Assembly: GCA_041665725.1 (NCBI GenBank)
Contig: JBAYIG010000002.1
Location: forward strand, 31,085 to 95,084
Length of the DNA stretch: 64,000 nucleotides
Reading direction: 5' to 3'
Source: Sideroxydans sp.
Lineage (GTDB): Bacteria > Pseudomonadota > Gammaproteobacteria > Burkholderiales > Gallionellaceae
Shown: piece after piece, positions 14,246-54,905 of the stretch
Layout of the letters: every line of letters begins with the position of its first letter
How positions within the stretch are numbered: the first letter of the stretch is position 1
Translations under genes and position numbers: made by a program
Notes under the pieces: generated by a model
What the model was told of the DNA's origin: nothing
Databases searched by the model: none
Seen by the model: the letters and a program-made list of their open reading frames with translations, nothing else

Positions 14246-14381
14246 CTCGACTCCACCCTGTTTTATTTGGACAGTGCGCATGCTAGAGAGTCCGCCAAAA
14301 TTGTTACAGAATCAGATTCGCGCAAATAAACCATATCAGATACGATGATGGCATCGAATCTAAAGGGGTGTATCCGGGCCG

Positions 14382-15809
14382 ATGAAACGCTACGAACAGC
14401 TTGCCGACGACATTGCGCGCTCCATCCGAGAGGGTCTGTTGACGCGGGGCGCGCGCTTGCCCTCGGTACGCGAGGCCAGCGCCAAGCGCAAGGTCAGCCC
14501 CTCGACCGTGTTTCAAGCCTATTACCTGCTGGAGGCTCGCGGACTGATCTCTGCACGCGAACGTTCGGGATATTTCGTCACGGGGGGCGCACAAGGTTTG
14601 CCGCCCTTGCCCGAGCCCGACATCGAAAGCAAAACAAAGGCGACAGAGGTAGATGTGAGTGAGTTGGTGTTCGAAGTACTGGAATCGACCCGCGCACGCA
14701 AGGTCGTACCGCTCGGCTCGGCCTTCCCCAGCCCGCTGCTGTTTCCCATGGCACGGCTGGCAAAGATCATGGCATCCAGTGTGCAGGGGATGGACCCGTG
14801 GCGCAGCGTAGAAGACATCAGCCCCGGCGATACCGAACTACGCCGTCAGATCGCCTTGCGCTATATGATCGACGGCCTGAAAGTACCGGTCGACGAGATC
14901 GTGATCACGAATGGGGCGTTGGAAGGATTGAACCTCTGCCTGCATGCTGTCACCCAGCCGGGCGACAAAGTGCTGATCGGCTCTCCCACGTTCTATGCGG
15001 CATTGCAGTCGATCGAACGCAATGGACTGAAGGCGGTGGATGTGCCATGCCATCCGCGCGAAGGCATAGACCTTGCCGCAATGGAGCGTGCCATCAAACA
15101 ACACAAGCCGAGTGCTTGTTGGCTGATGACGAACTTCCAAAATCCGCTGGGCAGTTTGATGCCGGACGAAAAGAAAAAAGCACTGGTCGAGTTACTCACG
15201 CGCTATGACGTGCCGCTGATCGAGGACGATGTCTATGGCGAACTTTACTTTGACGCCAAACGCCCCAAGCCAGCCAAAGCCTTTGATAGCAAGGGGTTGG
15301 TGATGCACTGTTCATCTTTTTCAAAATGCCTTGCACCGGGATATCGCGTCGGATGGGCGGCACCGGGACGTTATGCCAAGACGGTGGAACGAATCAAACT
15401 GACCACCACACTAGCAACTTCCGTGCCTGCGCAGATCGCCTTAGCCAGCTATCTGCAAAAGGGCGGATATGACCGTCATCTGCGTAGCCTGCGTCATACC
15501 TTGCAGTTGCAACAGATCAAATTCATCGAAGCCGTGGAACGTCACTTCCCCACAGGTACGCGCCTGACCGCCCCCAGCGGCGGCTATTTCCTATGGGTGA
15601 AGCTGCCAGACGGGGTGAACGCTTTGGAGTTGCATCGTGCCGCCCTTGAGCTTGGCATCAGCATCGCACCGGGACCGATCTTCTCGGCACAAAGAGGTTT
15701 TGAGGATTATGTGCGCCTGAACTATGGGCATCTCTGGAACGAAGAGATGGAATCATCGATTGCCGTGTTGGGTAAGATCATTCACAGACTCGCCCAGCGT
15801 GCCGCCTGA
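14382..15809 (+). CDS. MocR-type regulator (GntR HTH fused to a PLP aminotransferase-like domain)
   Basis: N-terminal GARLPSVREASAKRKVSPSTVFQAYYLLEARGLI (GntR wHTH). Class I/II aminotransferase fold with SFSKCLAPGYRVGW (PLP lysine). Confidence 0.85.
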   Translation: MKRYEQLADDIARSIREGLLTRGARLPSVREASAKRKVSPSTVFQAYYLLEARGLISARERSGYFVTGGAQGLPPLPEPDIESKTKATEVDVSELVFEVLESTRARKVVPLGSAFPSPLLFPMARLAKIMASSVQGMDPWRSVEDISPGDTELRRQIALRYMIDGLKVPVDEIVITNGALEGLNLCLHAVTQPGDKVLIGSPTFYAALQSIERNGLKAVDVPCHPREGIDLAAMERAIKQHKPSACWLMTNFQNPLGSLMPDEKKKALVELLTRYDVPLIEDDVYGELYFDAKRPKPAKAFDSKGLVMHCSSFSKCLAPGYRVGWAAPGRYAKTVERIKLTTTLATSVPAQIALASYLQKGGYDRHLRSLRHTLQLQQIKFIEAVERHFPTGTRLTAPSGGYFLWVKLPDGVNALELHRAALELGISIAPGPIFSAQRGFEDYVRLNYGHLWNEEMESSIAVLGKIIHRLAQRAA

Positions 15810-45102: not shown

Positions 45103-47595
45103 TCATGTGTCTACGATGGCTATTTGAGTCATTGCTGTGAGCGCAGCCAGAGCGCGTTCGAAGTCGATGTCTTCAATGGCCGCCTTGATTTCCTCGAAGG
45201 CCTGAGGTGATGCCGCCCGAAGCAACTCAGCATGGTCGTCGAGTGTGTGCTTTGCTCGCAATTCGTTTCCTGCCAGTTGTTGCGCCAGCGCTTGGCATAC
45301 CCGCGCCAGCTCCTGGGTATCGACCACTGATGTGGGTGGGTTGAAGTGGGGGCGTGGCGCTATCCAGCGCAACAGCGTCGGGTACAAGGCGGTCTGTGTG
45401 ACAGGCCTATCAATTACCTCGTTCATGCCGGCTTGTAAGCCAGCCGTGCGTACGGCAGGGGCGACGTTGGCCGTAATGCCGACGATGGGCCGGTCGGTCC
45501 AGCTGGGCAAGCGGCGGATGGCAGCGCAGGCTGTAGCACCGTCCATTTCCGGCATGTGCATTTCCATCATGATCAGCGCATAGTCGTCCGGCCCTCTGCC
45601 TTCCAGATGTTGCAACGCCGTCGCGCCATCGCCGACAACATCAACCGCTAGGCCGAGCTGTTCGATGAGAAGCCGCAACGTTTCCTGGTTGAGCGGGTCG
45701 TCGTCCACCACTAGGACACGAGCGCCGGCGATATCGGTCAGGCGTTCCCGATCTACGACCGGCTCGTTGGCTATGACCCATGGAGGCATTTGGGCAATGC
45801 CGCTATCCCGCTCTAGGGGTACCGTAAACCAGAACGTACTACCCCGTCCTAGTTCGCTGGATACGTCGATTGCGCCTCCCATCAATTCGACCAGCCGTTT
45901 GGAGATGGCGAGGCCCAGACCGGTACCACCATACTTGCGCGTGGTGGAACTATCCGCCTGCTGAAAGCTCTGGAACAGCCGGCTGATCTGCTCTTGACTG
46001 ATGCCGAGACCGGTATCGCTCACCGCAAAACGCAGGCGCAGACCATCGGCCGTGTCAGATTCCAAGCGCACACCCACATTAATCTCACCTTGCGGAGTGA
46101 ATTTGATGGCGTTGGATAGTAGATTGATCAATATCTGCTTCAGTTTGGTGAAGTCGCCTATCAAGTGATGCGGCACATCTGGCTCGACAATGAACGACAA
46201 GGTTAGCTGTTTGTTGACGGTTTTATCGGGGTACAGTGCCGCCACGTCGTTAAGCAGGTGGTCCAACACGAAGGGCGCACAGTCAAGATTCATTTTCCCC
46301 GCCTCGATCTTGGAAAAATCCAGCACGTCGTTGACCATGTCTAGCAGATGCTGCGAAGATTTTTGGATCTTCATTAGATAGCCGTGTTGGCGTGGACTTA
46401 GATTGGTATCGATGAGCAGGTGTGACATGCCGATGATGGCGTTCATCGGCGTGCGCAGTTCATGCGACATGTTGGCGATAAAGTCTGACTTGACGCGGCT
46501 GGCAGATTCGGCGAGATCTCTTGCGCGCAGGATTTCAGCTTCCGCTTTTTTTCTGTCAGAGATGTCGCGCAATATGCCTTGTAGGCGGCCGTCAGGCAGC
46601 TGTCGCGCGACAAGTTCGCCGACAAAGGTGGATCCGTCCTTGCGTTTGAATACCCACTCCGAGGTCACGACACTGCCTTCGGCGTAACGGGCTATCGTTG
46701 CCGGAATATGAGGTATTTCTTCCTCAACGTGGATATCGTGAATCGAGAGGTTCAATATCTCTTCACAGGTGTAGCCCAGCATGGCGGCACCGACGGAATT
46801 CACATCCACAAAGCGGCCGCTACTGTCGGACAAGAAAATACCGTCTGGCGATTGTTCGACCAGCAGGCGAAAGTGCGCTTCGCTGGCAGCCAGCGCGGCG
46901 GTGCGTTCGTCAACACGCCGTTCCAATTCCAGATTGTTTTCCTTCAACAAGCCCAACTGATCGTCGATCTTCCTACCCATCGCCTCAAGTAGCTGAGTGA
47001 GCGGTTTAAACTCAAGGTAGCGTGTGTCGGCCGTGATCTCGTAATCTCCCCGTCCATAAGCATCCACCATCCGAGTCAGTTCCGCGAACGGGTAGCGCAG
47101 GAAGAGTCTGATCATGGCATTCGCCGAGAGCGCCAAAACGAAGGTGATGATGACGATGATTGCCAAGAGAGACCAGAGCAGCTCGGTCAGCCGCTCCTCG
47201 AAGGGGTGTCGACTCAGACTGATACGCACCTCACCCACCGGGAACCCTTGATGCGTGATGCTTTCGGATATTTGCAGGGCTCCTGCGTCCTGCGTACGCT
47301 GAAAGAAAAAGATCCTCTTGCTCCGGCTACTGTCGAGAACTTCAATCGAACTGATATCAGGATCCTGTGCCACCGTGTCGCCGATCTGCTTGATGATGGC
47401 CTCGTTCAGCGCCCAGAGTGGCTCGGCAAGACTGCCCGTCAGGTAATCGAGCGTTACCTGCGCCTTGTCGTTGAGTTCCCGGTCGATCTGCCGCTTGGAG
47501 AACAGGTAGAACCCGCTACCGGTAGCCAACGAGATCGTGATGATCGTCGCGATGAGGAAAAAGGTCAGGCGCTTGGCAAGGGATTGCTGGGTCAT
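45103..47595 (-). CDS. Hybrid sensor histidine kinase / response regulator (TM-HAMP-PAS-HisKA-HATPase-REC)
   Basis: Two TM segments flank a periplasmic region. A PAS domain, H-box [17 protein letters not shown]-boxes DTGLGI and GGTGLGLAI, then REC ([10 protein letters not shown]...[10 protein letters not shown]). Confidence 0.9.
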
Positions 47596-48548
47596 GGCCG
47601 GAAGGACTCTCGTGGCTGCTTCAGGGGATCGACCAGAAACCTGTCGAAAAACTTCGATAGGCGGCGCTGATCCTCTGGCTGATACCAGCGCAGGGTCGCC
47701 GCGCGGTAGGCCGGGGTGGGTATGTAGTGCCTCAACACATCATTGACTTGCCCGATCACCTGCTGTCCCCAAGGATTGCGCACGCAGGTGACGTAGGTGA
47801 TGTTGTGGGGAGCGGCTTCGTCGATGGCAATGTTGACCAAGTCGGGGTGGAGGGCGAGATCCTGTTCAAAGAATGCCCGGACGGCCGGAAACTCAAGGAT
47901 GTAGTCGGTACGTCCGAGGCTGATAAATTCAAACAGACTTTGGTTGCTCGTCACGTTGGCGTGAAGGTAGGCTTGCCCCTTGAGTCTGCGGATGATCTGG
48001 TCAACCTGGCTGCCGTATGAGCGGCCCTCGATGAAACTGCCATCGAAGCGAGGATCCTGCATGAGGCGCGCAAGTGAAATGCTGGAGGGGTTGCCCAGCA
48101 ATTTGGCCTTGTCTCGGCGCATCACGACATAATTGGAAAGGAATACGGTCGCGGGGCTGGAGAAGTACAAAATACGCTCCCGCTCTGGGGTCTTGAAATA
48201 GTAGACCTTGCACACCTTTTGCCCCTCTGTGGCCAATTGCTCGTAGCGCGCGTTGTTCATCTCGATGAATTTGTGGTCGTACTCGGGTAGCTGGGTGACC
48301 AGTTCCTGCTGTAATAGATTCCAGACGCCTTGGCCTTTGCTACTCCCCTCGAGGATCATCCATGGCGGGAAATGCAGGTTAGCCCAGATGATGGTTTCCC
48401 TAGCCTGTACCCCTGTGCTGCAAAGCAGCAAAGTGCCGAACATCATGGCCGCACTCAAGGCGGTACGCACGTATGCGAATACGCCCTTCCACAACGGGTT
48501 GTTTGGCAAAGGAATCAACATAGGTGGATCATCATCCGTACGTATCAA
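47592..48548 (-). CDS. Periplasmic solute-binding-protein-like protein coupled to the hybrid kinase
   Basis: Signal-peptide-like ...AAMMFGTLLLCSTGVQA. The body resembles family-3 SBP / TIGR02285-type proteins as I remember them. ATGA overlap with the kinase gene. Start uncertain. Confidence 0.65.
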   Translation of the reverse strand: MIRTDDDPPMLIPLPNNPLWKGVFAYVRTALSAAMMFGTLLLCSTGVQARETIIWANLHFPPWMILEGSSKGQGVWNLLQQELVTQLPEYDHKFIEMNNARYEQLATEGQKVCKVYYFKTPERERILYFSSPATVFLSNYVVMRRDKAKLLGNPSSISLARLMQDPRFDGSFIEGRSYGSQVDQIIRRLKGQAYLHANVTSNQSLFEFISLGRTDYILEFPAVRAFFEQDLALHPDLVNIAIDEAAPHNITYVTCVRNPWGQQVIGQVNDVLRHYIPTPAYRAATLRWYQPEDQRRLSKFFDRFLVDPLKQPRESFRP

Positions 48549-48740
48549 GATAGGTATTCGATCATTATATGGAAAAACTCATATTGTCCTAGCCGATGAC
48601 CAGTTGCTGGAGCAGCAAGGAATGCTTACGTTGATTGCCATACTGCCGCAATATGAAGCCATCGTTGGGTGCGCTAAGGGAAGAGCGCCGCGAAATCAGC
48701 ATAGGAGGCTAGCGCAAAATCTCGCGGTGATATCTAGAAG

Positions 48741-49001
48741 TTAAGCGGCCTGTTCTGCACCCGGTTGGGGGAATACAATCGTCTTTGCGATATCATTCCT
48801 GCAAATCGAACATTTTCCGACCAAAAGCAAATCTCCACATCTGATCGCACCAGAATAAGCGGTGATACGCACATCATCGCAACATCTAGCACACCATATG
48901 GTCGAGAGTATTCGATCTCGAGTGCTGTCCGATAGTTGCGTCCATTTCCTAGCGGCTGGCGCAGAAAAGTCGCTTATATTCTCTACCTCTAGATTAGTCA
49001 C
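48741..49001 (-). CDS. Small Cys4 (zinc-ribbon-like) hypothetical protein
   Basis: 86 codons, GTG start inside GTGACTAA, which overlaps the stop of the IHF-like gene. Two CxxC pairs (WCARCC and KCSICR). Confidence 0.45.
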   Translation of the reverse strand: MTNLEVENISDFSAPAARKWTQLSDSTRDRILSTIWCARCCDDVRITAYSGAIRCGDLLLVGKCSICRNDIAKTIVFPQPGAEQAA

Positions 49002-49287
49002 GGTCTACCCTCTCTTTTAGCCCGAGTCCCGCTTTAAAGCGAGGTACATACTTGGCAGGCGTAATGACTTTCTCCCCCGTCTTGGGATTACGAGCAACAC
49101 GCTGTGCGTGATAGTTCAAATCAAAGCTACCAAAATTGCGAATCTCTACCCTACGCCCTTTAGATAATGAATCAGCGATACTTTCAAGGATGATGCGCAC
49201 TGAAACATCCACGTCAACAGAATAAAGAGATGAGAATTTTTCTGCCAATCGCCTGATGATGTCTGAACGTTGATGAACGTTATTCAT
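48994..49287 (-). CDS. IHF-beta / HU-family DNA-bending protein
   Basis: IIRRLAEKF...VEIRNFGSFDLNYHAQRVARNPKTGEKVITPAKYVPRFKAG aligns by eye with IHF-beta (RGFGSF...GRNPKTG...VPHFKPG). Confidence 0.85.
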   Translation of the reverse strand: MNNVHQRSDIIRRLAEKFSSLYSVDVDVSVRIILESIADSLSKGRRVEIRNFGSFDLNYHAQRVARNPKTGEKVITPAKYVPRFKAGLGLKERVDRD

Positions 49288-49323
49288 TATGTAAACTATT
49301 TTTTTGATTGATCTGAAGAACGA

Positions 49324-50190
49324 TCATTGAGAAAGAGAAAAGATCTTATGCGCATAGCGACTACGAGCTTCGATACGGGCAAACATAGGTGTCATGTCCG
49401 CATCCCACGTCATACCAAGCTTTCGACACGCTGGCGAAGAGAGTTTGGTAATGTGGTTTTCGATTCCCCCTGAGAGGTCAAGTGCATTAGCAAGTATCTC
49501 GGCAAGATAGACCAAAGGCACCAATGGGTTGTTCAGTGCCAACTCAGGAGAATGGTGATGACCAATCGCATTCCCGATGTTCTTTGGCAATCCCCAATGC
49601 TCAGCCAACCAATAGCCGATGGTCGAATGGTCGACACCGAACATATCTAATTCAGCTTGCTCGATACAGATGTCCTCTTGAAACACCCTGTGCCATAGAT
49701 GATGGAGCTCGCTAGGAAAGGCACAGCACAGCCATAGCTGACCAATATCGTGAAGCAAGCCGGCAATCAGGGTTGTCTCTGCCAGTTCATGATAGACGTT
49801 CTTACGAGCAAGTTCCTCGCTACAGATTCCCACCGAAACACTGTGCTCCCAATAGGTCACGGGCAGATTTGACAATCGAGCCGCTCTTGAGAAATCAGCA
49901 AAACTATGAATGATGGCTATCTCACGCACTCGCCCCATACCGATTAGGATGATTGCTGTACGTATGTCCACAATGGTAGTGCGCTGCCGCTTTATCGCAG
50001 CAGAATTGGCCACCGAAAGCACACGAGCCGTCAAGACAGGATCGTGCTTAACATAAGTGACTAATACGCTTAGATTCGAATCGGCATCGTCTATCGTTTT
50101 CAGTATTTGCGTGATGATGGCAGGTAGAGCGGGAAGAATGTTTCTAGTGCCAACGACCTCGTCTCTTGATAAGGCATAAGCAACCATCAT
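49324..50190 (-). CDS. HDOD-domain signalling protein
   Basis: LPALPAIITQILKTIDDADSNLSVLVTYVKHDPVLTARVLSVANSA is the HDOD signature, with LLHDIGQL and GHHH further on. ATGA overlap with the upstream 108-aa ORF. Confidence 0.85.
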   Translation of the reverse strand: MMVAYALSRDEVVGTRNILPALPAIITQILKTIDDADSNLSVLVTYVKHDPVLTARVLSVANSAAIKRQRTTIVDIRTAIILIGMGRVREIAIIHSFADFSRAARLSNLPVTYWEHSVSVGICSEELARKNVYHELAETTLIAGLLHDIGQLWLCCAFPSELHHLWHRVFQEDICIEQAELDMFGVDHSTIGYWLAEHWGLPKNIGNAIGHHHSPELALNNPLVPLVYLAEILANALDLSGGIENHITKLSSPACRKLGMTWDADMTPMFARIEARSRYAHKIFSLSQ

Positions 50191-50513
50191 GCACTCCTGT
50201 ACAGAATCACTTGATTGAACAACTTTGCCAACATTGGATCAGTTAGGTCGGCACCAGAAAATATCTCCATGACACGATTGGCCACCTTAGCCACATCGAC
50301 TGCCACTTGTTCTGGCACTCGCGAATCAGGTTCAACGATAAAGATGTATTCGGCTTGATATGTGCTGAGTTGTCGGATGTCTAGCTCAGTCAGAATAGCG
50401 CCCTCTTTTAAAGATAAGCGTAGGATTCCGTGATTCACGACATTCACATCTGCCCCTAAGGTCATGCCGGGCTCTGCTTCAATAATGGTAATGAAACGAG
50501 TTCTGTTTCTCAT
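50187..50513 (-). CDS. Stand-alone small domain resembling the N-terminal module of HD-GYP/HDOD proteins
   Basis: 108 aa, AGGAGG SD. EAEPGMTLGADVNVVNHGILRLSLKEGAILTELDIRQL fits the L-x-PGM-x-L-x-x-DV ... G-x-x-LT-x-x-x-I-x-x-L pattern I recall from N-termini of HD-GYP proteins. Confidence 0.6.
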   Translation of the reverse strand: MRNRTRFITIIEAEPGMTLGADVNVVNHGILRLSLKEGAILTELDIRQLSTYQAEYIFIVEPDSRVPEQVAVDVAKVANRVMEIFSGADLTDPMLAKLFNQVILYRSA

Positions 50514-50530
50514 TATTCCATCCTCCTGTT

Positions 50531-51025
50531 CTAGCTCAGCGAGCTGCCATCTTGAGAGGCAGTTGATGAAGACTGAGCGTTCAAGTCTAATTTTTCGTTA
50601 ATGACGAAGGCCATCACTTCCACTTGTTCTATGATTGCGGAGGTCAGATTGCTTCTAGTTCCATCATCATATTGTTGCGTCAGCAGTAATTCGGTGAAGC
50701 CATAGATACTCGCAAGCGGAGCTCGAAGTTTTTCAGCAATCTGCTTCATGTCATATTCCTGACGTGTCACTCTTCTCCGAACATAGTGAATCGCTCGGAT
50801 GCAACCACTGGCAACATCAACCCGAAGATGATCAATCACTGGGAGATCAAGCTGAAAGATAAAGTCTGCTTCGCTCATACCGATAAAACTAGATCTCGAC
50901 ATTCCAATGCATCGCTCGAATGACGGACTCACTGAACATACATTGCCTTCTCTATCGATGGCCACTATGCCCCAAGGGGAATGATTCCACGCCATCTCCA
51001 TCGCTAACGTATCAGTCGTTTTCAC
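50531..51025 (-). CDS. PAS plus DHp (HisKA-like) stub lacking the phospho-acceptor His and the ATPase domain
   Basis: PAS-like N-terminal half (GIVAIDREGNVCSVSPSFERCIGMS), then QIAEKLRAPLASIYGFTELLLTQ. The neighbouring kinase has AAHELRTPMASIYGFSELLLNQ at this position, so His is replaced by Glu. The protein ends about 60 aa later. A GTGA overlap with the REC gene is the likely start (TTG 51037 and ATG 51001 are also possible). Confidence 0.7.
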   Translation of the reverse strand: MKTTDTLAMEMAWNHSPWGIVAIDREGNVCSVSPSFERCIGMSRSSFIGMSEADFIFQLDLPVIDHLRVDVASGCIRAIHYVRRRVTRQEYDMKQIAEKLRAPLASIYGFTELLLTQQYDDGTRSNLTSAIIEQVEVMAFVINEKLDLNAQSSSTASQDGSSLS

Positions 51026-51396
51026 GCTTCTCTCCAAAGTAATGCATCATGCAAATGCTTTTCAAGTGCCGCCGGGCTAAAGGGTTTAACGAAATATGCG
51101 TCCGCTCCAAGCGCTCTTCCTTGTTCCTGATCTGATACCTGACCACAAGCAGTCACTAGAATCACATAGATACCTGACAGCCGGTCGCTTTGCTTGATGT
51201 GTTCACATAGCTGGAATCCAGACATACTCCCGGACATCATCACATCCAATATGATGGCGTCCGGAAGCGAGTTATTAATAGATTTCAATGCGGAATTCGC
51301 ATCCTTAGCCTCTGAGACTTCAAATCGATCTCTCAATGCCAAACGCACCACCGTGCGGATATTCTCTTGATCATCTACAACAAGGACTTTCTTCAT
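51022..51396 (-). CDS. Single-domain response regulator (CheY-like), copy 1
   Basis: MKKVLVVDDQ..., LDVMMSGSMSG (acceptor Asp), VTACGQ, YFVKPFSP. Confidence 0.9.
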   Translation of the reverse strand: MKKVLVVDDQENIRTVVRLALRDRFEVSEAKDANSALKSINNSLPDAIILDVMMSGSMSGFQLCEHIKQSDRLSGIYVILVTACGQVSDQEQGRALGADAYFVKPFSPAALEKHLHDALLWREA

Positions 51397-51706
51397 TTGC
51401 GTATCTTTACAATTAAGGTTGAGCGACTACTGGAAATCCATCTTTGAATTGAGCGGCGACTTCATAGAACTTGTGTTGAAATGAGACTTGCTCCTCATCG
51501 TGGTTGAATCACCACCACCTTTCACCACGAGCTCTCCTAGTGTCGTTCCATAGAGTGCCGTCTGTGCTCGATTCCACAACAAGAACTTACCGTTCCAATC
51601 CTTACATCAGGATGACGCTCTAATTTTCATCAATCACGGTTCTTAAAAGGGCGCTCCCTCTTGTCAATTCCACTTTGATATCGACGTTTTGATTGCTCAT
51701 TCTTTC

Positions 51707-53758
51707 TCAAATTTGTTCAGCCAATAACGAGGCTGTTCCCGAAACAAGCAAACTATCGTTAGCAACTGCCGTATCAATGGGTATCCAGATTGTCACCGCT
51801 GTTCCTTTACCTATTTCACTTTCAATCCCTATGCTGCCGCCATGAAGTTCGACGATCTCCTTCACGATGCACATTCCCAAACCTGTCCCGCTAATCTTTC
51901 CTGAGGTGTCGGCACGATAGAACCGATCAAAGACATGAGACAGTTGCTCAGAAGTCATGCCGATTCCCGCATCAACGATTTTGACCCCCACCATCTCACT
52001 TGCTTGAGTACTTTGTGATTGAACCAGTTCAATGGTTACCTCACCGCCCATAGGAGAATATTTGTATGCGTTTGAGACGATATTGTTCAATACCTGAATG
52101 AGCTTGCTCCTGTCCGCTCGTGCCAAGACAGGTTGATTACCCTGCAGTAATTTTGGAGGTGTACGCCCATCTGGGGGCACATAACCTCTCATGACATCCC
52201 GAATCAGATCGATGATATTGATTGATGTGATCTCGAAGTCTTGGCCTCTTTTTGATTCGATGCGTGCAAGATCCAAGAGCTCATTGATGATTGAAATCAT
52301 CAGAACCGACTGTTTATATATCGTTTCAACCAGCTCCTGCTGCTCTTCCGCACTGAATGATTGGTTCAGTAAAAGTTCAGAGAATCCATAGATGGAGGCC
52401 ATCGGAGTTCGCAATTCATGTGCTGCTGTAGACAGGAACTCGCTCTTCATGCGATCCACTTCATTTTCATGTGTGATATCGCGAAAGTACAAAAGGACTG
52501 AAATCGTCTCTGAATCTGACTCACGAATCCCGACTTCTACTACTTTCCTTGAGGTGAGAATTTCGAACTTTTGGCACGGATTCTTTGGTTTGTTTTCTTC
52601 TACATTTTGCATCGCTCTAAGAGCTGCGATACCACAGAATCTGGATTGGGGGGTACACAGGCCGGATATTAGTTGTGTGAATTCTGATTCACCAAGACCG
52701 ATGACCGAATGAGCATCCAATCCTGTGATAATTTCAAATGTAGGATTCACGTATTTAACATAACCGTCCTTGCAAAAGGAAACGACAGCGTCCGGGCTCA
52801 GCGAACAGATGGCCCTCAATTGTTCTGTTTTGTGCATTTCAGACAAGTCTGAAAATACGCCGATATAACTCAACACACTCCCAGTCTCATCCTTCACTGA
52901 AGTAACACAAAGCCACTGCGGGTAGTCTCTACCCGTTTTGGTTTTGTTGTGGATCATGCCTACCCAAGTGCCCGTGTCTTCCAATGACTTCCAAAAGTTG
53001 TGGTAGAAGTCAATGGATTGCATGCCTGATTGCAGGAATCGTGGATTGCGTCCTATTGCTTCTTCTGCACTGTAACCTGTGATATTTGTAAAGGCGGGGT
53101 TGACCGCCCTAATCTCTCCATCAACATCTGTGATCATCACCCCCTCACTCACATTATTGAGTACTTCTGATGAGATCCGACTTTCAAATTCCCTTTCTCG
53201 GAGATGCGTGATGTCTTGGATGAGCCAATAGAAGGTCAAATCCTTGGTATCTCCAACACGGATGACCTGCCCAGAAGCAATCATCATCCCCGCCTTGCTA
53301 CGCTGGCTCACAAAATGAAGTTCGCACGCAGGCTCTATGGCCCCGTCCGCCATATTCATTCTCGCGACCTCCAGCATCTGCAAGAGTTTCCCGCGATGAG
53401 ATTGCAGGACAAAATCGACCAGCCTTCCGCCAACTAGCCGGTCAATTTTGTCAATTGCCTCTGATGATGAACTGACCTGTAGGATGCCCCCATCCCGGTC
53501 CGTCAAGATGTGGATATCTCTGGATATTCGCATCAAAGAATTTAGTTCTTCTCTGCTTTGCAAGAGCTGCTCACTAGACGCTAGCAATTCCTGATAATTC
53601 GTGGTCAGCTTTTCATTACGCTCGATCATTTGTTGCAAATCTTCTGCATACCTAAAAAGTTGATTGTGTAGCTCGACGCCACGATCCCCCCCTGGTATTC
53701 GCAATGACTGTCCATTCGCTAAGATAGGCTTCATACCTTTGTCTGCGAAATAATTCAT
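51707..53758 (-). CDS. Cytoplasmic multi-PAS sensor histidine kinase
   Basis: 683 aa with no TM segment. Coiled-coil N-terminus, about three PAS domains (e.g. GVMITDVDGEIRAVNPAFTNITGYSAEEAIGRNPRFLQSG), H-box TAAHELRTPMASIYGF, N-box NNIVSNAYKYS, G-boxes DAGIGM and GTGLGM. Confidence 0.92.
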   Translation of the reverse strand: MNYFADKGMKPILANGQSLRIPGGDRGVELHNQLFRYAEDLQQMIERNEKLTTNYQELLASSEQLLQSREELNSLMRISRDIHILTDRDGGILQVSSSSEAIDKIDRLVGGRLVDFVLQSHRGKLLQMLEVARMNMADGAIEPACELHFVSQRSKAGMMIASGQVIRVGDTKDLTFYWLIQDITHLREREFESRISSEVLNNVSEGVMITDVDGEIRAVNPAFTNITGYSAEEAIGRNPRFLQSGMQSIDFYHNFWKSLEDTGTWVGMIHNKTKTGRDYPQWLCVTSVKDETGSVLSYIGVFSDLSEMHKTEQLRAICSLSPDAVVSFCKDGYVKYVNPTFEIITGLDAHSVIGLGESEFTQLISGLCTPQSRFCGIAALRAMQNVEENKPKNPCQKFEILTSRKVVEVGIRESDSETISVLLYFRDITHENEVDRMKSEFLSTAAHELRTPMASIYGFSELLLNQSFSAEEQQELVETIYKQSVLMISIINELLDLARIESKRGQDFEITSINIIDLIRDVMRGYVPPDGRTPPKLLQGNQPVLARADRSKLIQVLNNIVSNAYKYSPMGGEVTIELVQSQSTQASEMVGVKIVDAGIGMTSEQLSHVFDRFYRADTSGKISGTGLGMCIVKEIVELHGGSIGIESEIGKGTAVTIWIPIDTAVANDSLLVSGTASLLAEQI

Positions 53759-53765
53759 ATGGACC

Positions 53766-54131
53766 TCACTCAGCCAATGTTTCTTTAATCGCTGTTACAA
53801 GTTGAAGTGGGCTGAACGGCTTGATGAAATACTCCTCGGCCCCTCGATTCAAGCCATTCTCATAGTCGCTCACCTGCCCTCTTGCAGTAACCATAATTAC
53901 GTGGATATGCTTTAGCTCAGCATCGCTCATGATGCTATCCAAGACTTTGAGCCCATCCATATTCCCTGGCATCATGACGTCTAGGACTACCAGATCCGGC
54001 TTCTCGCTCCGAATTATTTTCAGACTGGTTTCTCCATCCTCGGCTTCCAACACTTCGAATCCATTACCCAAGGTGATACGTATCAGCCTGCGAATATCTG
54101 AATGATCATCAACGATTAACACCTTCTTCAT
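53766..54131 (-). CDS. Single-domain response regulator (CheY-like), copy 2
   Basis: MKKVLIVDDH..., LDVMMPGNMDG, VTARGQ, YFIKPFSP. ATGA overlap with the upstream HTH-REC gene. Confidence 0.9.
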   Translation of the reverse strand: MKKVLIVDDHSDIRRLIRITLGNGFEVLEAEDGETSLKIIRSEKPDLVVLDVMMPGNMDGLKVLDSIMSDAELKHIHVIMVTARGQVSDYENGLNRGAEEYFIKPFSPLQLVTAIKETLAE

Positions 54132-54793
54132 ACAACCTCCCGAGAGCGCAACTTCCTACGATTTTCAACCAGCCCATCCGCAATCATTCGCAACTGATCA
54201 AATTGAACAGGCTTGTGGAATAAAGGGATACCCCAAGGTATGCCTCCGCGCCTTGCAATCTCCTCCGCATCAAGACCGCTTACGACAACAATGCTGATCT
54301 CAGCCAACTCAGGCATTCGCCTGATCGTGTAGAGCATACGAAACCCATCCATGCCGGGCAGATTCAAGTCAGCCACCAACATATCCGGCTTAATGCTTCC
54401 GATTCGAATAAGTGCTTCGTATCCATCAGTAGCAGTCGCAACATTGATTGGTGGTTGCCATTCGCTAAACTTGATCTCATAGAGTCGACATAACGCAGAG
54501 TCATCCTCCACAACGAGAATATCTAATGGCTCGATTTGAACGTCCGCCCTATGACTATCCTTGATGCGATGAATCTGAGGTACAACCGAGGAATCAGCGA
54601 CAAGCGATTTTGCAAGCAATTGATCCACCGATCCCCTATCGATCCTTCTATGCCCACCTTTTGTCTTCCATGCATATAACAGTCCGCTATCAACCCATAA
54701 CTGCGCGGTTCTAAGCGATACTGAAAGTGCTTTTGCTGCTTCTCTAGTGGTACAAAATGTCTTACGAGCTTGTTGGTTATGTTTCAGTTTCAC
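54128..54793 (-). CDS. Response regulator with N-terminal excisionase/MerR-type HTH (HTH_17) and C-terminal REC
   Basis: TTREAAKALSVSLRTAQLWVDSGLLYAWKTKGGHRRIDRGSVDQLL (HTH_17 pattern), then ILVVEDDSALCRL...VADLNLPGMDG. No ATG near the 5' end, so GTG 54793 behind GGAAGGGGGAGGA is preferred over TTG 54808. Confidence 0.8.
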   Translation of the reverse strand: MKLKHNQQARKTFCTTREAAKALSVSLRTAQLWVDSGLLYAWKTKGGHRRIDRGSVDQLLAKSLVADSSVVPQIHRIKDSHRADVQIEPLDILVVEDDSALCRLYEIKFSEWQPPINVATATDGYEALIRIGSIKPDMLVADLNLPGMDGFRMLYTIRRMPELAEISIVVVSGLDAEEIARRGGIPWGIPLFHKPVQFDQLRMIADGLVENRRKLRSREVV

Positions 54794-54905
54794 TCCTCCC
54801 CCTTCCAAAAGAGAAACCTAATTTATTACAAAGAATATCATTTATTATCTTTTTGTGTCATTTAATTCTTTTTTAAATCAGTTTTATAGGGATTATTAGA
54901 CTGGA

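Follow-up and report, generated by a model that had tools for sequence, protein, structure and literature searches.

A conserved PAS and DHp protein with glutamate in place of the phospho-acceptor histidine, a candidate receiver-docking pseudo-histidine kinase of Sideroxydans sp. and other Betaproteobacteria

Within a 64,000-nucleotide stretch of the metagenome-assembled Sideroxydans sp. genome GCA_041665725.1 (contig JBAYIG010000002.1, positions 31,085 to 95,084; hereafter the window), a short gene on the minus strand encodes a PAS-like domain followed by the DHp hairpin of a histidine kinase, with Glu at the position of the phospho-acceptor His and with no catalytic and ATP-binding (CA) domain behind it. 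We call this protein the stub. It is probably a functional, conserved pseudo-histidine kinase of the DivL kind, though without a catalytic domain, that would dock or sequester its own receiver, the single-domain response regulator REC2. Binding of REC2 is the most likely activity, rather than catalysis, because the catalytic parts are gone, the docking helix is kept and the receiver gene always stands upstream. The stub, its parts, its putative partner and the neighbouring kinase lie in the window as follows, with residues of the stub numbered throughout in a frame of 168 amino acids.

50531 to 51025, minus strand: stub gene, encoding a putative pseudo-histidine kinase of 164 amino acids, short PAS plus DHp hairpin without CA domain (open reading frame, sequence, NCBI call, N-termini of homologues, Pfam HisKA)
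50780 to 51016, minus strand: shortened PAS-like domain (AlphaFold2 predicted local distance difference test score, pLDDT, of 80-92; Foldseek matches; BLASTP gap)
50588 to 50749, minus strand: DHp-type helical hairpin, alpha1 at residues 97-120 and alpha2 at 125-150 (model pLDDT >90, column comparison of 50 stubs with 132 kinases, HK853 alignment)
50732 to 50734, minus strand: GAA codon for Glu102, which replaces the phospho-acceptor His (direct sequence read and alignments)
51022 to 51396, minus strand: REC2, a single-domain response regulator of 124 amino acids with DD, D51, T82 and K104 (Pfam Response_reg 83 bits, synteny, orthologue alignment)
51707 to 53758, minus strand: parent-type PAS histidine kinase of 683 amino acids, with H-box AAHELRTPMASIYGFSELLL and an intact HATPase_c domain (Pfam, BLASTP against the stub)

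The replacement of the acceptor His can be read from two alignments. BLASTP matched the stub to the neighbouring 683-residue kinase (E = 3e-15, 31% identity) over kinase residues 321-507, i.e., the PAS domain next to the DHp together with the HisKA region. Here IAEKLRAPLASIYGF of the stub pairs with AAHELRTPMASIYGF of the kinase, so that Glu falls on the acceptor His and Lys on the following Glu; with IAEKLRAPLASIYGFTELLLTQ set over AAHELRTPMASIYGFSELLLNQ, Glu102 corresponds to the His, Lys103 to the next Glu and Ala106 to Thr. The codon after that of Glu therefore specifies Lys where kinases have their catalytic Glu, and H+4, the fourth residue after the acceptor, is Ala where kinases have Thr. 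Independently of BLASTP, an alignment of the stub-family profile with Thermotoga HK853 (PDB 4jas) placed the same Glu on the acceptor His. The Pfam HisKA model PF00512 narrowly recognised the stub, with 27.4 bits (cut-off 26.9), the PAS models scored slightly under their thresholds, and no HATPase_c match was found in the protein, which ends 66 residues past the Glu. A preliminary description of this gene had proposed both substitutions and the lack of an ATPase domain; all three hold, and neither alignment offers a His at the acceptor position.

No catalytic domain was found elsewhere in the neighbourhood that could once have belonged to the stub or could now serve it. When the catalytic domain of the kinase was searched against the window in all frames (tblastn), there was no match downstream of the stub and no separate gene near it encoding a catalytic domain only. 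Significant matches fell solely in two full kinases, at 51707-53758 and 45103-47595, and a further one at 14289-14555 was not significant (E = 0.31). Since no frame downstream holds a catalytic-domain match, the stub is not a frameshifted kinase; the possibility of HATPase motifs in other frames, which the preliminary description had raised as evidence of a remnant, is thereby disposed of.

The limits of the gene are likewise well defined. Its open reading frame on the minus strand can begin at a TTG (50531-51037, 168 amino acids) or at a GTG (50531-51025, 164 amino acids). The true start is almost certainly the GTG at 51025, because it shares GTGA with the TGA stop codon of the upstream receiver gene, because the N-terminus that it gives, MKTTDTLAMEMAW, agrees with MKSIDSMAMEMAW of a 70%-identical homologue (P0001), and because the NCBI gene call, MFA6119876.1, also has 164 amino acids. 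The coordinates first proposed for the gene, 50531-51025, are thus right. Its stop codon is followed after 18 nucleotides by the start of the next gene. In the Joint Genome Institute (JGI) annotation the stub, which is also present as L001:6001-6348, is a protein of 115 amino acids beginning MSEADF and is named 'signal transduction histidine kinase', and the NCBI name for the same stub of 164 amino acids is 'PAS domain S-box protein'. Members of the family now carry one or other of these names, of which the former is wrong for proteins that, on the evidence below, cannot be kinases.

The structural model is consistent with a PAS and DHp fragment from which much has been removed. AlphaFold2 predicted a PAS domain, a linker of low confidence and then a confident helical hairpin (mean pLDDT 77.8), and the best PDB matches of this model in Foldseek were PAS-DHp fragments of kinases, with PAS domains also among the matches. 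The PAS domain is about 45 residues shorter than the aligned PAS of the kinase, as measured by the BLASTP gap, and was modelled as an N-cap helix, two strands, helices and two further strands, i.e., four strands, not five. A resemblance between this domain and a PAS domain of the kinase had been noted previously, and it stands insofar as the BLASTP match covers the kinase PAS next to the DHp, although the peptides had been quoted in swapped order, SPWGIVAIDREGNVCSVSPSFERCIG being that of the stub and SPDAVVSF... that of the kinase. In the model, alpha1 begins only 5 residues ahead of the Glu, and the part of the DHp bundle that survives is its lower, receiver-docking half. The segment LRAPLASIYGFTELLLTQ, below the acceptor position, is the predicted helix for regulator docking and dimerisation.

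Stubs of this kind form a family. A word-index search yielded eight homologues of 164-177 amino acids that are 37-70% identical to the stub, and a profile search of 1.84 billion cluster representatives yielded about 26-30 short proteins (mostly 150-177 amino acids) at 150-258 bits, a family size that counts clusters at 50% identity; below 134 bits, full-length and often multi-PAS kinases dominate. A pattern scan of species-representative genomes located stubs in Gallionellaceae, other Nitrosomonadales, Methylophilaceae including Methylotenera, Rhodocyclaceae (Sulfuritalea, Sterolibacterium) and unclassified metagenome-assembled genomes of Burkholderiales, and most of these carriers come from freshwater or groundwater. 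The scan separated two classes of protein: those ending 54-76 residues past the acceptor position all have Glu there, except for one with Gly and one with Ala, and those running on for 214-263 residues all have His. Among close stub pairs with unsaturated synonymous divergence, the ratio of non-synonymous to synonymous substitution rates (dN/dS) was 0.035-0.10. The family is under purifying selection and functional.

These results bear on the simplest alternative, that the stub is a functionless leftover of a kinase gene broken by truncation or frameshift. Its short length, the absence of any catalytic feature and the JGI call trimmed to 115 amino acids would suit a remnant. However, the length is constant across several families of Betaproteobacteria, dN/dS is far below 1, tblastn found no leftover of a catalytic domain in any frame, and in several genomes the stub has stop-start overlaps with both neighbouring genes. 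Family conservation, dN/dS and the lack of a catalytic-domain match rule out a remnant, and we consider it hardly credible.

The stub is, however, descended from kinases, as had been suggested, and the question is from which. Its nearest non-stub relatives are betaproteobacterial kinases with H-boxes of the AAHELRTPM type, referred to here as parent-type kinases, and orthology to DivL is not expected. The window stub shares 31% identity with the neighbouring kinase but 41-70% with stubs of other genera, and those stubs have other kinases at their loci. A recent duplication of the neighbouring kinase is therefore ruled out; the parent is the kinase subfamily, and the family must be old, since the window stub is far nearer to stubs of other genera than to the kinase beside it. 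Derivation of REC2 and the stub together from a duplicated pair of single-domain receiver and kinase was also considered. Such a receiver lies adjacent in only a minority of parent-type kinase loci, and as a general account this origin is unsupported. One family member departs from the usual architecture: P0018 (244 amino acids, on an ENA contig of 1034 nucleotides) has two tandem DHp hairpins, with Glu at the acceptor position of the first and Leu at that of the second, and the two could make a four-helix bundle within a single chain.

To establish what the family has lost and what it has kept, alignment columns were compared between 50 distinct stubs and 132 distinct parent-type kinases, with positions counted from the acceptor.

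Position 0: in stubs, Glu 84%, Ala 6%, Asp 4%, never His; in kinases, His 100%
Position +1: in stubs variable, mostly Leu, Ala or Met (Lys in the window protein); in kinases, Glu 100%
Position +4: in stubs, Glu 88%, Asp 8%, Ala 4% (Ala in the window protein); in kinases, Thr 98%
Positions +2, +3 and +5 to +17: L-R-x-P-[LM]-A-S-I-Y-G-F-x-E-L-L-L, common to stubs and kinases
Positions -6 to -3: in stubs variable; in kinases, F-L-S-T conserved

The stretch common to both groups, LR-P-[LM]ASIYGFxELLL, is the putative docking stretch; in the stubs it hardly varies from +5 to +17, and G+11, E+14 and L+15 are invariant among the 50 compared. The positions +7, +8, +11, +12 and +15 of alpha1 are those that we take to be the main receiver-contact and specificity positions, after the HK853-RR468 and EnvZ-OmpR complexes. 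At these positions the stubs have A/T/S, S, G, F and L, respectively, as do the parent kinases, which suggests that the regulator-docking surface of the DHp has been kept, as far as sequence can tell.

The catalytic residues have fared differently. In HisKA proteins an acidic residue at H+1 is needed for kinase activity and Thr or Asn at H+4 for phosphatase activity (Willett and Kirby, PMC3510030). By these criteria all three catalytic determinants are replaced in the stubs, which have neither the His, nor an acidic H+1 residue, nor Thr/Asn at H+4. Autophosphorylation is excluded by the lack of a catalytic domain, of an acceptor His and of an acidic residue at H+1. Relay of a phosphoryl group would need another His, for which His84 was a candidate, being invariant in an alignment of nine sequences; it is Tyr in four other stubs (P0023, P0032, P0034 and P0038), no His is invariant across the wider stub family, and a relay function is accordingly ruled out. 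The role of a canonical HisKA phosphatase is not supported, since Thr/Asn at H+4 is absent. Judged by its sequence, then, the stub can have neither kinase nor phosphotransferase activity, nor phosphatase activity of the canonical HisKA type. The earlier suggestion that it might act as a phosphatase-only partner fails for that canonical mechanism, H+4 being Ala here and Glu or Asp in the rest of the family (PMC3510030).

A non-canonical phosphatase has to be weighed separately. On this account, carboxylates at positions 0 and +4 on one face of alpha1 would place a water molecule for hydrolysis of phosphorylated REC2 (REC2~P). Comparable arrangements of acids, or of an acid and an amide, occur in CheZ (DxxxQ), CheX (ExxN) and Spo0E, and isolated DHp domains have been reported to keep phosphatase activity, which would count in its favour. 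Glu or Asp is found at position 0 in 88% and at +4 in 96% of the 50 stubs, and the two positions are spaced i, i+4 on the helix that faces the receiver active site in kinase-receiver complexes. Several observations speak against it, i.e., the absence from all stubs of the Thr/Asn that HisKA phosphatases require at H+4 (PMC3510030), the tolerance of Ala, Gly and Leu at position 0, where a catalytic residue would not be so readily exchanged, and the Ala at +4 of the window protein and its closest relative, which leaves one carboxylate of the two. We regard such an activity as quite improbable for the family, and for the window protein it is unlikely on the last count also.

The gene neighbourhood points to REC2 as the partner. 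An orthologue of REC2 lies directly upstream of the stub in every locus for which upstream sequence was available. These orthologues are 57-64% identical to the window REC2 and are better conserved than the stub. The stop-start overlap between the two genes is GTGA in the window and 4 nucleotides long in several other loci. Every REC2 orthologue retains the acidic pair, the Asp that accepts the phosphoryl group, the Thr/Ser and the Lys, so REC2 is a normal phosphorylatable single-domain regulator. On one metagenomic contig (L083:310-1182, protein P0031, 290 amino acids) a REC2-type receiver is fused to a stub with Ala at the acceptor position; the surroundings are the usual ones, with an HD-GYP gene preceding the fusion and a multi-PAS gene following it.

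Kinases are also found at these loci, although less regularly arranged. Wherever the flanking sequence extends to about 5 kb or beyond, the stub locus includes a kinase whose H-box is of the AAHELRTPMxSIYG[FY] type, and the kinases vary between loci in sensor architecture, position and number. In many loci the genes between the parent-type kinase and REC2 include one for a hybrid kinase with an Hpt domain and one for a receiver-HD-GYP protein. The main alternative is that the kinase, not the receiver, is the partner: the stub DHp would pair with that of the parent-type kinase in a dominant-negative heterodimer having one catalytic domain and one His. Should autophosphorylation of the kinase occur in trans, such a heterodimer would be dead, by the logic with which RetS blocks GacS. 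In favour of such pairing, stub and kinase DHp share nearly all of alpha1 and a loop alike in length and similar in composition (Q-x-[YF]-D-E-x-x-R), and a parent-type kinase accompanies the stub wherever the flank is long enough. Precedents exist in the heteromeric DHp-DHp complexes of RetS and GacS, which block trans-autophosphorylation (PMC8498467), and in a ChrS variant that, with its CA domain inactivated by a frameshift, heterodimerises with HrrS and alters signalling (PMC9491836). Nevertheless, the conserved and translationally coupled neighbour is the receiver, with the nearby kinases differing as described; the part of alpha1 around and above the His, where catalysis would be blocked, is unconserved and largely absent in the stubs; and the stub alpha2 has conserved residues of its own that are unlike those of the kinases. 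Overall, we think it unlikely that heterodimerisation is the main function. The receiver is favoured as the primary partner because it is the invariable neighbour where kinases vary, and because the upper bundle needed to block catalysis has been lost.

Taken together, docking of the adjacent CheY-like protein, one of several options in the preliminary description, is the best supported of them at the level of sequence, through the conserved pairing of receiver and stub, the docking helix and the one fusion. In the mechanism that we propose, the stub would dimerise and bind REC2 at the canonical kinase-receiver interface, so that the carboxylate at the former His position, with that at H+4 in most members, faces the receiver active site. 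It would act through binding alone, and the phosphoryl groups would come from the real kinase encoded in its cluster. Two outcomes can be envisaged. The stub may hold REC2 off the real kinase and so provide signal buffering or a threshold, or it may read the phosphorylation state of REC2 and relay it via the PAS domain and the dimer, as DivL reads DivK~P. A preference for REC2 would make it a threshold-setting decoy and a preference for REC2~P a signal-passing sensor, between which the sequence does not discriminate.

Several points weigh against docking of REC2 as the function. The stub alpha2 is systematically unlike that of the kinases at +30, +34 and +35, and its docking specificity may therefore have drifted from theirs. 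Position 0 is not always Glu, with Ala, Gly, Asp, Gln and Leu also found, and because Glu is not universal no specific chemistry can be assigned to it. Conservation of alpha1 would be equally expected if selection had acted on dimerisation alone, be it of the stub with another stub or with the kinase. Finally, the fusion of REC2 to a stub is a singleton from one assembly, where it may be real or an assembly error, and as it occurs on a single contig it is weak evidence.

A more specific version of receiver docking is put forward tentatively, and we think it rather unlikely. The stub would be an enzymatically inactive natural kinase decoy, a DHp dimer in which carboxylates on what was once the catalytic face imitate the phosphorylated kinase and which would lock the co-translated receiver in a dead-end pre-transfer complex, giving either a titration threshold or a DivL-like flow of information from receiver to PAS. 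If this were true, the stub would represent a minimal form of reverse two-component signalling that arose independently of DivL in Betaproteobacteria, and one small enough for use as an engineering part.

The remaining genes of the cluster and its surroundings are as follows.

54128 to 54808, minus strand: first gene of the cluster, a response regulator with MerR-like helix-turn-helix and receiver (Pfam HTH_17, Response_reg)
53766 to 54131, minus strand: REC1, a single-domain receiver of 121 amino acids upstream of the kinase, 48% identical to REC2
50187 to 50513, minus strand: p108, a conserved protein of 108 amino acids, beginning 18 nucleotides after the stub and sharing 4 nucleotides with the HDOD gene
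49324 to 50190, minus strand: HDOD-domain protein of 288 amino acids (Pfam HDOD 1.1e-48, synteny)

REC1 and REC2 flank the kinase and both belong to a subfamily with the motifs VTA[CR]GQVSD and KPFSP; either could dock both kinase and stub. Between the kinase and REC2 genes lies a gap of 310 nucleotides without an open reading frame (51397-51706), where other genes of the cluster abut or overlap. A scan of 48500-52000 for promoters and terminators gave no more sites than shuffled sequence and none in the gap, the only hit close by being a site that weakly resembles a terminator, at 51344-51357 within the REC2 gene but on the other strand.

Downstream of the stub, p108 and the HDOD gene appear to be a travelling pair. 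Homologues of p108 are 55-79% identical, and the pair trails the stub in about half of the lineages, is missing there in Methylophilaceae and some other loci, trails full-length kinases in two loci (with p108 at L043:928-1272 and L047:9050-9385) and occurs twice in tandem in another (L012). An obligatory unit of REC2, stub, p108 and HDOD is ruled out by the loci that lack the pair and by those in which it follows kinases. The pair is a separate module outside the core, an optional accessory of the stub cassette. We also considered whether p108 might be a disguised catalytic domain or another known domain. It had no Pfam or NCBIfam match, none below E = 0.04 arising among eight homologues scanned at E up to 10, and its model, a small beta-rich domain with two helices, had no Foldseek match in the PDB at E <= 0.001; weak matches were to a MoeA/gephyrin domain, RNA polymerase subunits and the HD-GYP protein Bd1817. 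Neither identity is supported.

Beyond the HDOD gene, 48741-49287 (minus strand) encodes an HU/IHF-like DNA-binding protein (97 amino acids) and an overlapping open reading frame of 86 amino acids without a family match; neither protein had a tblastn match in the stub loci L002-L023. A second signalling unit follows at 45103-48548 (minus strand), comprising a protein of 318 amino acids with no recorded family and then a hybrid PAS kinase of 830 amino acids, which has a receiver domain, a 4-nucleotide overlap with the preceding gene and an H-box of another type.

The known pseudo-histidine kinases are a few single cases (DivL, RetS, RocA), most of which still resemble full kinases. In the stub family, evolution has repeatedly pared the kinase down to its PAS domain and that half of the DHp which docks receivers, and has coupled the product to a CheY-like partner of its own. 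It thus offers a clean natural system in which to ask what the docking interface does without chemistry, and whether a carboxylate at the His position serves as a recognition feature. The stub could also serve as a small orthogonal receiver-binding module.

The closest analogue is DivL of Caulobacter crescentus, which has a non-phosphorylatable residue at the His position, a dispensable catalytic domain and no kinase or phosphatase activity, and which binds DivK~P via its regulator-docking surface with help from a PAS domain in phospho-specific recognition (PMC4211667). Like the stub, DivL is built from PAS followed by DHp with a non-phosphorylatable acceptor residue kept among orthologues apart from occasional Ala, and DivL uses the canonical docking surface to bind a single-domain response regulator (PMC4211667). 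The stub is predicted to bind REC2 at the corresponding surface. The two differ in that DivL is a large multi-PAS protein of Alphaproteobacteria with its catalytic domain still present and Tyr rather than Glu at the acceptor position, whereas the stub has 164 amino acids, no catalytic domain and an origin in another kinase subfamily.

RetS-GacS of Pseudomonas aeruginosa and the ChrS variant show that a real kinase can be regulated by DHp-DHp contact with no phosphotransfer (PMC8498467, PMC9491836), and the latter that inactivation of its CA domain need not deprive a kinase of biological activity (PMC9491836). Unlike the stub, RetS is a hybrid kinase-like protein of full length, the ChrS variant arose in the laboratory and does not represent a conserved family, and neither of them comes with a single-domain receiver of its own.

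Small DHp-based proteins that dock receivers are represented by Spo0B and ChpT, with their DHp-like bundle, and by HK1/HK2 of Mycobacterium tuberculosis, a split kinase in which HK2 is a natural DHp-only protein. All of these keep a phosphorylatable His and relay phosphate. The stub differs from Spo0B, ChpT and HK2 in having no phosphorylatable His and no gene nearby for a catalytic domain alone.

In RocA of group A Streptococcus, a kinase homologue as the stub is, the predicted acceptor His is dispensable, the protein acts by interaction with a real kinase (CovS), and an overexpressed form without the CA domain still complements a rocA mutant (PMC7028121). RocA differs from the stub in being a membrane protein that retains the putative His and has no attached receiver gene. 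A photoreceptor has also been described with PAS and a two-helix module where type 1 bacteriophytochromes have their histidine kinase output domain (PMC6899989). It is a large protein that signals via a complex with the repressor PpsR2, not via a receiver, and the likeness to the stub noted here is one of architecture.

In open-access papers and preprints we found no conserved family of soluble proteins with PAS and DHp only, a replaced catalytic triad and a dedicated single-domain receiver. Nor did they yield, beyond the analogues described above, a protein from nature that consists of PAS and DHp alone or has Glu where the acceptor His would be. Pseudo-histidine kinases and interference between kinases are already known; a family without the CA domain that is tied to its own receiver appears to be a new combination.

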